The notes beneath the pieces were generated by a model that did not search any database, was not told the origin of the DNA, and saw nothing but the letters and a program-made list of their open reading frames with translations. Source: an uncultured Clostridium sp. (GTDB taxonomy: Bacteria; Bacillota; Clostridia; Clostridiales; Clostridiaceae). Taken from it: a stretch of DNA of 64,000 bases. Below are positions 61,490-63,211 of the stretch, one piece after another. The stretch spans positions 47,722-111,721 of the forward strand of contig UQBY01000006.1 in the NCBI GenBank assembly GCA_900539375.1, in the 5' to 3' direction. A program made the position numbers and the translations under genes. Position 1 is the first letter of the stretch. Every line of letters begins with the position of its first letter.

Positions 61490-63211
61490 TTAATTAATAT
61501 TATATTGGTTTCCATTCATATAATGATAGATTCCATCAGAAGTTTTATAATAACTACTATTATAAACAGATATAACTCCATTATCTGTAATACTATTTTG
61601 GGGACTTATATAAACTTCTTTTATATTTTCACTTTTTTTAAATCTAAAACTATTTCTTACTTTATTATTTAATTTAGAATCCCAATTTCCATCTAATACA
61701 TAATAAGTTTCTTCTTCTGTCTTAGCACCATTTCTTAAATTATCCCATCTATAAATTTTCATATATAAATAGTTATTAGTAAACATTGAACTAGGAATTT
61801 TAAATTCATACCATATTCCATTTGGATTTAATTTTTCCATAAATTCATTAGGTTTACTAACCATATAAGATTTATATTTAGTTCCACCTTCCCCACAAGA
61901 GTTTTCGCTATCTGAACTATTAAATTCTAAAAATAATCTACCAGCACACATTTTTGTTTGATCAAAATAAACAACTATACCATCATAATCTTCCTCAGTT
62001 GTTTCTCCATCTCCAGTTTCAGGACCACTTTCTCCTGTTCCTCCGCCAGATGATTGTAATTTGGTATATTTTATTTCTAAATTTTCAATAGGCTTTTTAT
62101 CAGTTTGTGCAGTAAAATAAGCTAAAGTTCCTCCTAAATTAAATACTACAATTATACAAACAAATATCATTCCAAAAGCTCTAATAGCTTCCCTTTTCCC
62201 TAAATTTTGTATTCTAGCTCTCATTTTAAATATATTTACTCTAGGTTTAACACTAATAACTCCTGCTAAAACAAGGCTAGAGAATGTTATTGATATTATT
62301 AAGAATAACATTCCTACTTTAAAGTTGTATAAGAATCCTCCACTTGTTATACTTACCATAGCCATTGTAGTTAAAAGTATTATCATTTTTTCATTAAAGC
62401 TTGTTTCAAATCCTGCTATTTTATCGTATATCTTATGTTTTGATTTTACTCCTAATACTAGCATAAGCATACTTGTTGTAAATAGCATTGATATTATTAA
62501 GAATACTATTCCTGCTTTAAGATTTTTTAAGAAACCTCCACAGGTTAAACTTACCATAATTATTGTACTTAATAGTATTATCATCTTTTGGTTAAAGGTT
62601 GTTTTTACTCTTATAACTTTTCCAATAGCTGAGTTTTCTTCTTTAGCTTCTATTACTATTAAATATAATGCTAAGGCTGAAATAATTGAAACAATTAAGA
62701 ACAAAATACCTGCTTTAAAGTTTTGTATAAACCCTCCACAGGTTAAACTTACTAATATTAATGCAGTTAATAGAATAAACATCTTTTCCCCATTTGTTCT
62801 CTCTGCTAATATTACTTTTTTAATTTCTCCCCTTTTAGAATTTATTCCATACATTAATAAGAATGTAATTGCTACAAAAACTATTGAAACAATTAAAAAT
62901 ACAATTCCCATTGTAAAGTTTTTAACAAAACCTCCATAGGTTAAACTTACTAAAATAAGAATTGATAATACTACAATTGCTCTATCATTAAAGGTTCTTC
63001 CTTCTCCAACAAGTTTATCTGCACCCTTTGCAATATATTTCATTATAAATAAAAGTAATACCAATCCTAAGGATACTCCAAAAGATATTCCTAAAAATTT
63101 CATTCCAACTTTAAAATTATCTAAAAAACCAGAACAGGTGACACCTATAATAACTAAAGTAATTAAAGCTATAAGCCCTGCTACAAGTTTCTTATTACTT
63201 TTTTTATTCAT
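61490..63211 (-). CDS. Membrane protein: five tandem ~60-aa 2-TM modules, then an internal SipW-cognate-type signal sequence (GGTLAYFTAQTD, residues ~360-371) and a ~200-aa extracellular domain
   Basis: 573 aa. Modules such as FNQKMIILLSTIIMVSLTCGGFLKNLKAGIVFLIISMLFTTSMLMLVLG are repeated 5 times. Then come RAFGMIFVCIIVVFNLGGTLAYFTAQTDKKP and a G/E/T linker. The C-terminal domain reads GIVVYFDQ...NGIWYEFKIP...YLYMKIY. The start codon overlaps the upstream stop (TAATG). Confidence 0.65.
   Translation of the reverse strand: MNKKSNKKLVAGLIALITLVIIGVTCSGFLDNFKVGMKFLGISFGVSLGLVLLLFIMKYIAKGADKLVGEGRTFNDRAIVVLSILILVSLTYGGFVKNFTMGIVFLIVSIVFVAITFLLMYGINSKRGEIKKVILAERTNGEKMFILLTALILVSLTCGGFIQNFKAGILFLIVSIISALALYLIVIEAKEENSAIGKVIRVKTTFNQKMIILLSTIIMVSLTCGGFLKNLKAGIVFLIISMLFTTSMLMLVLGVKSKHKIYDKIAGFETSFNEKMIILLTTMAMVSITSGGFLYNFKVGMLFLIISITFSSLVLAGVISVKPRVNIFKMRARIQNLGKREAIRAFGMIFVCIIVVFNLGGTLAYFTAQTDKKPIENLEIKYTKLQSSGGGTGESGPETGDGETTEEDYDGIVVYFDQTKMCAGRLFLEFNSSDSENSCGEGGTKYKSYMVSKPNEFMEKLNPNGIWYEFKIPSSMFTNNYLYMKIYRWDNLRNGAKTEEETYYVLDGNWDSKLNNKVRNSFRFKKSENIKEVYISPQNSITDNGVISVYNSSYYKTSDGIYHYMNGNQYNIN

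Follow-up and report, generated by a model that had tools for sequence, protein, structure and literature searches.

A five-hairpin membrane protein from an uncultured Clostridium with a predicted internal SipW-class signal peptide

TasA and TapA of Bacillus subtilis and BsaA, BsaB and BsaC of Clostridium perfringens are among the closest counterparts of the system considered here, and in all described cases their signals are N-terminal. In TasA, BsaA and TapA the residues just after the SipW cut serve as a donor strand into the neighboring subunit (PMC10151520, PMC11580942); residues 28-38 form this strand in BsaA (PMC11580942), and residues 44-57 of TapA alone suffice for biofilm formation (PMC10151520). 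Polytopic proteins can also be substrates of a type I signal peptidase, as SpsB of Staphylococcus aureus cleaves LtaS between its membrane and extracellular domains (PMC12260438). Here we compare with these systems a gene at positions 61490..63211 on the minus strand of a 64,000-nucleotide (nt) stretch of contig UQBY01000006.1 (the window), which comes from an uncultured Clostridium sp., has a G+C content of ~28% and carries nearly all of its genes on the minus strand. A previous interpretation made without database searches (the sequence-only reading) had called internal cleavage unusual for signal peptidases, which is overstated in view of LtaS. Judging by its sequence features, the encoded protein (the target) is likely cleaved by a signal peptidase at a non-canonical, internal site, and it belongs to a small family that is specific to its lineage and lacks annotation.

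The likeness to LtaS is one of architecture. Both proteins have a polytopic N-terminal domain with an odd number of helices, an outer domain and, between the two, a type I signal peptidase site, which in the target is predicted: a T-L-A site follows helix 11, where the polytopic membrane domain gives way to the extracytoplasmic domain. YfnI of B. subtilis is processed like LtaS. On the other hand, the target shows no sequence or domain kinship to LtaS, no sulfatase domain and no Pfam, NCBIfam or PDB sequence match. The LtaS peptidase is of the bacterial P type, whereas the candidate enzyme here is a SipW of the endoplasmic reticulum (ER)/archaeal type with an AYF-class motif, and the membrane domain of the target is an array of 66-amino-acid (aa) hairpins with variable copy number and swappable cargo.

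Two less similar systems bear on the comparison. The cytochrome b/c1 polyprotein FbcH of Bradyrhizobium japonicum, reportedly described by Thony-Meyer et al. in 1989 and 1991, is said to be cleaved at an internal signal peptide. It would share with the target the combination of a bacterial polytopic protein with an internal signal, one gene giving rise to a multi-helix membrane protein and an exported domain, but its halves are reportedly subunits of one respiratory complex, without repeats, SipW or cargo variation. The ER signal peptidase complex cuts viral and cellular polyproteins at internal signals; there, too, a Ser/His peptidase of the ER type, which includes SipW, makes its cut behind internal helices of multi-spanning precursors, but the system is eukaryotic and its substrates are not homologous to the target. 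A literature search on SipW and internal signal peptides returned no paper.

The target agrees with the TasA, TapA and Bsa proteins in its signal class (..GT-x-A|[AY]F..), in its linkage to sipW and in being accompanied by other proteins with AYF signals (PMC10151520, PMC11580942, PMC7395162), and its locus resembles the sipW-bsaA-bsaB-bsaC and tapA-sipW-tasA matrix operons (PMC11580942, PMC10151520). As in TasA, BsaA and TapA, a short conserved segment follows the predicted cut, and as in TapA this N-terminal strand is followed by an unrelated domain. Unlike theirs, the signal of the target stands after 330 residues of hairpins and its mature part has no similarity to TasA, BsaA or TapA. The locus also differs in interleaving sortase-type and exopolysaccharide (EPS) genes, and in a SipW with a ~570-aa cytoplasmic extension.

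Our preferred explanation, which we hold on balance to be probable, is that SipW cleaves the internal signal and so frees a protein of 209 aa whose N-terminal strand resembles that of TapA. Five hairpins (ten helices, both ends cytoplasmic) would insert first, and helix 11 would act as an internal start-transfer signal that carries the C-terminal part across the membrane. The SipW-type peptidase encoded at 51831..54074 would then cut between A364 and Y365, a position set by analogy with TasA, which is cleaved TWA|AFND. In the freed 209-aa product, a flexible linker would join a short conserved N-terminal strand (YFT..LEIKY) to a beta-rich domain, and the 364-aa hairpin stub would stay in the membrane, an outcome that is rare in bacteria. 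By analogy with TapA and BsaA, the free N-terminal strand may dock onto matrix or fiber proteins or wall proteins of the locus and so tether a variable cargo. The features of the target are given below; an AlphaFold2 (AF2) model was used for helix boundaries and the fold class of the cargo alone, its membrane part being of low confidence.

61490..63211, minus strand: the whole open reading frame (ORF), 573 aa, a predicted 11-helix precursor with an internal SipW-class signal (ORF list and hydropathy)
63219..63224, minus strand: ribosome-binding site GAGGTG, 7 nt before the ATG
63014..63211, minus strand: hairpin unit 1, residues 1-66, beginning with the basic N-terminus MNKKSNKK
62816..63013, minus strand: hairpin unit 2, residues 67-132
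62618..62815, minus strand: hairpin unit 3, residues 133-198
62420..62617, minus strand: hairpin unit 4, residues 199-264
62222..62419, minus strand: hairpin unit 5, residues 265-330
62180..62245, minus strand: strongly basic cytoplasmic segment PRVNIFKMRARIQNLGKREAIR, residues 323-344, the n-region of the putative internal signal (AF2 helix 328-336)
62120..62197, minus strand: internal signal-like segment K339-A364 with the h-core AFGMIFVCIIVVF (13 aa) and the c-region NLGGTLA (TIGR04088 and geometry)
62111..62122, minus strand: AYFT motif with the predicted SipW cut between A364 (62120-62122) and Y365 (62117-62119)
62054..62119, minus strand: predicted mature N-terminus YFTAQTDKKPIENLEIKYTKLQ (alignment)
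61982..62053, minus strand: flexible linker rich in G, E and T, residues 387-410 (predicted local distance difference test score, pLDDT, <50)
61493..61981, minus strand: beta-rich C-terminal domain, residues 411-573, ~163 aa (pLDDT ~80)

In the uncleaved protein the stretch across the predicted cut would read NLGGTLAYFTAQTDK, and the uncleaved peptide form would be GGTLAYFTAQTDK.

Helix 11 corresponds to residues 345-364 by hydropathy, within the sequence KREAIR-AFGMIFVCIIVVF-NLGGTLA|YFTAQTD; in the AF2 model it covers residues 339-359 and ends just ahead of G360-G361. Its n-region contains eight K+R, the 7-aa c-region contains helix breakers, and T at -3, A at -1 and YF at +1/+2 surround the predicted cut. 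The predicted -1 position lies 20 aa behind the last charged residue in every family member examined and 18-20 aa behind it in true signals, and helix-11 variants and true signals align gap-free through the h- and c-regions. With respect to the TIGR04088 class (cognate_SipW, cut-off 19 bits), a SipW-type peptidase lies nearby and the n-h-c layout is present; the position is not N-terminal (residues 339-367, behind ten helices). The helix 11 segment scored 18.0 bits against this model (E 0.0024; 17.8 bits in a second search), and the genuine N-terminal signal of the neighboring 1167-aa gene scored lower, at 14.4 bits. Nine of 15 segments, made up of ten helix-11 variants and five true signals of related loci, were matched by the model. 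The full-length protein gave no match to it at E<=0.01, and the hairpin units gave none even at E<=10. A six-frame scan for A[YFW]F[STNH] after a hydrophobic segment in a listed ORF returned two adjacent genes only, the target and 57968..61471. With its n-h-c layout, its TIGR04088 score and the geometry of the signals of the locus, the segment bears out the sequence-only reading, which had described residues ~340-371 as a near-textbook SipW-cognate signal.

Relatives of the target point in the same direction (L001-L016 below denote related contig loci, and P-numbers homologous proteins). A search of 5.8 billion protein clusters yielded 42 relatives, and a search with the leader of the most divergent member yielded no new ones. 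A profile of the last hairpin plus helix 11 had 10 hits among 1.84 billion representatives (seven family members, one paralogue family and two chimeric fragments), and 2 of 185,579 species genomes were positive, both of them rumen metagenome-assembled genomes of uncultured Clostridium or Clostridiales. The motif [GS]TxAYFT follows the last helix in all members, about 45 homologues with identities down to 35%, while its codons vary synonymously; selection therefore acts on the protein. As the motif and the architecture recur in all full-length homologues, they are, on this comparison, not due to chance. Behind the motif stand at least ten unrelated mature parts of 131-683 aa, including CBM26, PKD/Y_Y_Y-type repeats and unknown domains.

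The exchange of these parts has a sharp boundary. Homology by blastn extends from the upstream gene through the hairpins and stops at 62094 (L008), 62112 (L012) and 62111 (L004), and in L008 there is no further homology until 57850, shortly ahead of the GT2 gene. Because the homology ends at the AYFT codons, the mature part of the target and the whole adhesin gene (57968..61471) constitute a variable island with its left edge at the predicted cleavage site. Between the window and L008, the synonymous substitution rate (dS) is 0.10 for the hairpins but 0.54 for helix 11, and nucleotide identity drops to 78% from codon 346 on. A search with the signal and cargo part for stand-alone versions with an N-terminal signal retrieved family members or fragments only. 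The sequence-only reading had proposed that SipW cleavage sheds the extracellular domain and leaves a membrane remnant. The geometry, the linked SipW, the invariant motif and the AYFT boundary all favor this proposal, and it is from them that we infer the cleavage itself.

The island spans 57851-62093 on the minus strand, between conserved flanks, and on the right it ends immediately ahead of the GT2 gene. At 15769-15984, L008 still encodes a C-terminal piece (71 aa) of an adhesin of a different type, which is a trace of cassette replacement. P0018 was considered as a hairpin-less variant and rejected, as its copy in L014 is split by a frameshift and its copies in L015 and L016 lie at contig edges. 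The target gene of L014 (2375-4095) is divided into 209+364 aa, and SipW is split in L006 (10977-13231) and L007 (9058-11248); each may reflect real decay or an assembly error. P0042 and P0043, which start inside unit 5 on contigs of 1.7 and 4.6 kb, are probably contig-edge fragments.

A different explanation is that helix 11 is a permanent, uncleaved eleventh anchor and that the whole protein displays its C-terminal domain outside, AYFT being kept as a membrane-proximal strand that binds BsaA/TasA or as an uncut element that binds SipW. We regard this as possible but rather unlikely. Oligomers of C. perfringens BsaA have been reported to be anchored via the cytoplasmic membrane (PMC11580942), the TIGR04088 score lies under the cut-off, and the conservation of the hairpins and the cytoplasmic segment suggests that the membrane part has a function of its own. 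In addition, a paralogue encoded in the window uses the same hairpins as a stable anchor.

54239..55621, minus strand: paralogue, 460 aa, with three homologous hairpins, a last helix of 26 uncharged residues and an extracellular domain (blastp E 1.5e-12)

The paralogue also shows what a real anchor looks like in this setting: its last helix is an uninterrupted run of those 26 uncharged residues, with no c-region and no AYF, whereas the target has a 13-aa h-core, then N-L-G-G and T-x-A, the layout of a cleaved signal and of the other signals of the locus. Furthermore, a motif held at the membrane surface would be poorly placed for a strand that inserts into another subunit, and alleles with CBM26 cargo must reach past the wall. 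The paralogue family was also found by the target-family profile (P0047). The hairpin array is most likely a module for membrane retention or anchoring that is specific to this lineage and that works in the paralogue without cleavage.

Several observations weigh against cleavage and release. On its cytoplasmic side the candidate signal is attached to a large membrane domain, and its TIGR04088 score is just below the cut-off (18.0 vs 19). The AF2 model has a mean pLDDT of 55, and of ~50 in the membrane region, which is low confidence. No Pfam match was found for the C-terminal domain at E<=1, and the domain that would be released has no recognizable family. Cleavage alone gives no reason for ten helices under purifying selection, nor for the near-invariant cytoplasmic segment before helix 11. 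Docking onto fibers, an addition to the cleavage model, is weakened by the BsaA-like gene of L001 (8058-8810), the closest relative; this gene seems to be 5'-truncated and to lack a signal, by either real decay or an assembly error.

The cleavage model presupposes that the hairpins and the signal belong to one polypeptide. It could be argued that the product begins at an internal start codon just before helix 11, which would turn the latter into an ordinary N-terminal SipW signal and leave the hairpin region as a separate or untranslated sequence. M330 precedes the basic segment in the window allele, where it is the sole Met ahead of that segment. On the other hand, no RBS-like sequence (RBS, ribosome-binding site) was found before M330, and homologues have M, V, L or T at position 330, so there is no conserved internal start. 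The hairpin region has a ratio of nonsynonymous to synonymous substitution rates (dN/dS) of 0.09-0.10 (vs two alleles), and the frame is continuous across all alleles. Promoter-like sites are not enriched, with 30 found vs 42.9 +/- 7.1 expected in shuffles. We therefore rejected an internal start, which we find scarcely credible; the sequence-only reading had named such a start near the AYF signal as one finding that would refute its own proposal.

The annotated start, by contrast, is conserved along with its RBS. The ATG of the target overlaps the stop of the upstream gene as TAATG, and the AGAGGTGAT..TAATG junction occurs also in L011 and L012. The start of the target equals the end coordinate of the upstream gene in L001, L004, L008 and L011, and in L012 the two genes overlap by 8 nt. 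Full-length homologues at 73-98% identity are present in many independent assemblies. Because of the conserved RBS, the stop/start overlap, the dN/dS of ~0.1 in the hairpins and the lack of a conserved internal start, translation of the entire ORF is supported as far as sequence can tell. The full protein matched no family in Pfam or NCBIfam.

The membrane domain is highly regular. [GS]GF anchors occur at residues 27, 93, 159, 225 and 291, a period of exactly 66 aa without indels; spacing this regular suggests that structure constrains it. Within a unit, a basic cytoplasmic lead-in is followed by a first helix (TM-a) ending ..(S/T)(L/I)T(C/Y/S)GGF, a turn of 1-8 residues (xNFK) and a second helix. 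The five tandem units of the sequence-only reading are thus confirmed in number, but each has 66 aa rather than ~60 and together they cover residues 1-330 rather than ~8-325. Identity between units is 22-53% at the amino-acid level, and all ten unit pairs match by BLASTP with E values of 9e-5 to 6e-20. Aligning the units as DNA, as had been suggested for dating the duplications, gave 47-69% identity, and no array at the unit length of 198 nt was reported by Tandem Repeats Finder, so the units were duplicated long ago. A PDB search with the hairpin profile gave no match.

By hydropathy there are 11 uncharged segments. The N-terminus, the long loops and the segment before helix 11 contain 4, 5, 6, 5, 5 and 8 K+R (total 33), and the short turns contain 2, 1, 1, 2 and 1 (total 7). 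By the positive-inside rule, these counts place the N-terminus inside, the turns outside, helix 11 in an inside-to-outside orientation and the C-terminal part outside. AF2 helices break at residues 32, 98, 164, 230 and 296, which are the NFK turns. Few stretches of the protein are as invariant as the cytoplasmic segment PRVNIFKMRARIQNLGKRE, which precedes helix 11.

Hairpin copy number differs among homologues, being 5, 4 (P0041) or 2 (P0038-40). The second unit of P0038 is a hybrid, its N-terminal half 78% identical to unit 2 of the window and its C-terminal half 62% identical to unit 5, joined at GGF; by this alignment it is an in-register loss or gain of three units. A lipobox reading of SLTCGG at the ends of the first helices was rejected, as Thr stands at -1 and the Cys is not conserved: unit 2 has Y and unit 5 has S in its place, and the units of the paralogue lack it.

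The origin that had been proposed for these repeats is not supported. The sequence-only reading had invoked serial duplication of a signal-anchor; the repeated unit is instead a two-helix hairpin, the paralogue has a plain anchor, and the similarity between TM-a and helix 11 is not significant. A 66-aa two-helix hairpin keeps its topology when duplicated. Against helix 11 alone, the hairpin-unit profile gave a probability of 3.7% and a score of 15.8, where 100 column shuffles averaged 9.7 and reached at most 16.6. With true signals added to helix 11, the probability was 30% and the score 21.6, above 100 of 100 column shuffles. Column shuffles erase the generic basic-hydrophobic-polar order of any inside-to-outside helix, and beating them is weak evidence. 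Helix 11 compared better with the true-signal profile (68% probability, score 26.8). A common origin of TM-a and helix 11 is, on these comparisons, neither shown nor excluded, and the hairpin array looks like an independent membrane module.

These comparisons also bear on the suggestion that the TM-a helices, as degenerate signal peptides, would tune cleavage by serving SipW as docking sites or as decoys that it cannot cleave, an idea compatible with cleavage at AYF. TM-a does have a basic lead-in, a hydrophobic stretch and a T-x-G-G end, hhalign pairs GGF with GGT in the register of the sequence-only reading (score 21.6 vs the mixed signal profile), and SpbR, a polytopic protein, binds and inhibits a type I signal peptidase (PMC12260438). 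We nevertheless consider this role very unlikely. The match to helix 11 alone (3.7% probability, score 15.8) falls within the shuffle range, exceeding column shuffles with the mixed profile carries little weight, and no unit matches TIGR04088 even at E<=10. A second helix begins 1-8 residues after each TM-a, hence no extended c-region is exposed. Furthermore, the same hairpins occur in the paralogue without a cleavage motif, and their copy number varies between 2, 4 and 5.

On the other side of the predicted cut, the sequence-only reading had placed a G/E/T-rich linker and a ~190-aa domain; both are present, but the folded domain has ~163 aa. In all cargo variants the segment after AYFT ends hydrophobic-x-hydrophobic (LEIKY, LTISY, LIINY and others) and is followed by a flexible linker. 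The LEIKY-type motif aligns with the L-x-I of the BsaA-like proteins of the locus. The segment comprising helix 11 and the mature N-terminus matches TIGR04088 only, and three other N-termini of the locus match TIGR04090 weakly. Homology to TasA/BsaA (TIGR04090, Peptidase_M73) was not detected by Pfam, NCBIfam or Foldseek. For the C-terminal domain, Foldseek against the PDB returned nothing at E<=0.001, starch-binding domains being weak, non-significant hits (E 0.48), and a PDB sequence search with the protein gave no match. Comparison of the domain with the CBM26 profile of the sister alleles gave an hhalign probability of 0.3%, and there was no PF16738 match.

The genes around the target supply the presumed processing enzyme and several candidate partners.

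51831..54074, minus strand: SipW-type (archaeal/ER-type) signal peptidase I with a ~570-aa cytoplasmic extension, the presumed processing enzyme (TIGR02228, 68.6 bits)
57968..61471, minus strand: adhesin-like protein, 1167 aa, with an N-terminal AYF signal (..TTSA|YFNS) and MucBP and CarboxypepD_reg domains
63211..64000, minus strand: upstream gene, of which the window contains the 3' part; its translation is coupled to that of the target (homology)

The score of the peptidase exceeds the TIGR02228 cut-off (51.85); against the Bacillus SipW equivalog model it reached 63.9 bits, under the cut-off of 190. A GSMEP serine motif is visible. The gene lies 7.4 kb downstream of the target on the same strand, and this arrangement is syntenic in L004 and L008. 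The fusion protein has 747 aa, with a peptidase part of ~190 aa and a second transmembrane (TM) helix followed by the extension, and the fusion is kept in L004 and L008. SipW of B. subtilis has ~190 aa. The extension contains an E/K-rich stretch, a Q/N-rich stretch and about eight 'IAKNLLxMxMxxExIxxATGL' repeats, with weak hits to HTH_26 and an Rpn C-terminal-like domain. These repeats are shared by a 254-aa ORF two genes past SipW (50193-50957, minus strand).

The conserved gene order starts with an AYF-signal protein (349-440 aa), a Sec-signal stalk protein, the target and an AYF-signal adhesin (866-1283 aa), and continues with an optional block of GT2, pyruvyl transferase and 460-aa paralogue genes, the SipW fusion, a 236-245-aa paralogue of the wall-anchored protein and the 254-aa repeat protein. 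The upstream gene directly precedes the target in L001, L004, L008, L011 and L012. By homology it encodes a Sec signal, a Pro-rich stalk and a C-terminal VPVKTGD + TM + basic tail, and this tail looks like a sortase sorting signal.

The protein encoded at 63211-64000 is itself one of a pair of paralogous small secreted proteins, the other being encoded at 51009-51746 (both on the minus strand). They share an N-terminal domain with the pattern ..FW.P......F.I.N.W..E.Y.DY..F..SYI.NT, which belongs to no Pfam family, and end in VPVKTGD + TM + RK and VRTEDP.. + TM, respectively. Both may partner with the AYF proteins while anchored in the wall or membrane. In the 460-aa paralogue of the target, an acidic Ser/Glu-rich linker precedes the C-terminal domain. 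Its gene adjoins those of a GT2 glycosyltransferase (56774-57745) and a polysaccharide pyruvyl transferase (55652-56743), and this three-gene block is missing from the most divergent locus, L004.

A more elaborate form of the cleavage model can be drawn from this gene content, although we think it speculative and improbable. The hairpin array would be a reusable 'launch pad' for the initiator or tip subunit of SipW-dependent fibers. The YFT..LxIxY strand would prime or cap BsaA/TasA-like or wall-anchored acceptors, as TapA does, and a carbohydrate-binding cargo would be shown on the fiber. The invariant cytoplasmic segment would couple processing to the 570-aa tail of SipW.

If cleavage occurs as predicted, an ER/archaeal-type peptidase would process a signal buried behind a polytopic domain, a bacterial counterpart of polyprotein processing, and the SipW-class motif would work independently of position. 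Signal predictors and annotation rules that consider the N-terminus only miss substrates of this kind. The family also appears to illustrate modular evolution, with a conserved 364-aa leader behind which at least ten unrelated outer domains have been exchanged exactly at the cleavage motif, and its 66-aa hairpin repeat constitutes a previously undescribed kind of membrane module. The setting, a rumen/gut Clostridium that degrades starch, with amylases and maltodextrin uptake genes nearby, hints at adaptable binding to surfaces or matrix. The practical reach is limited, as the family is tiny and comes from uncultured organisms only.

Elsewhere in the window, three very large surface proteins are encoded at 4068-8018, 8255-11173 and 11272-15057 on the minus strand. 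Two of these are alpha-amylases with CBM26, Y_Y_Y, PKD and MucBP domains, and the third has MucBP, SSSPR-51 and Y_Y_Y domains. A GH77 4-alpha-glucanotransferase, a LacI regulator and a maltodextrin-type ABC transporter are encoded at 41883-50015. The amylases and the maltodextrin genes indicate a starch-degrading organism, which fits the CBM26 cargo of the sister alleles. Capsule/EPS genes lie at 1165-3870 and 15292-19022 (minus strand) and include those for GT2 glycosyltransferases, a CpsB/CapC-type phosphatase, a dTDP-4-dehydrorhamnose epimerase and a dehydratase. Finally, a flavin mononucleotide (FMN) riboswitch (RF00050, 113 bits) is located at 41202-41319 on the minus strand, upstream of ribD-ribE-ribBA (38043-41029).

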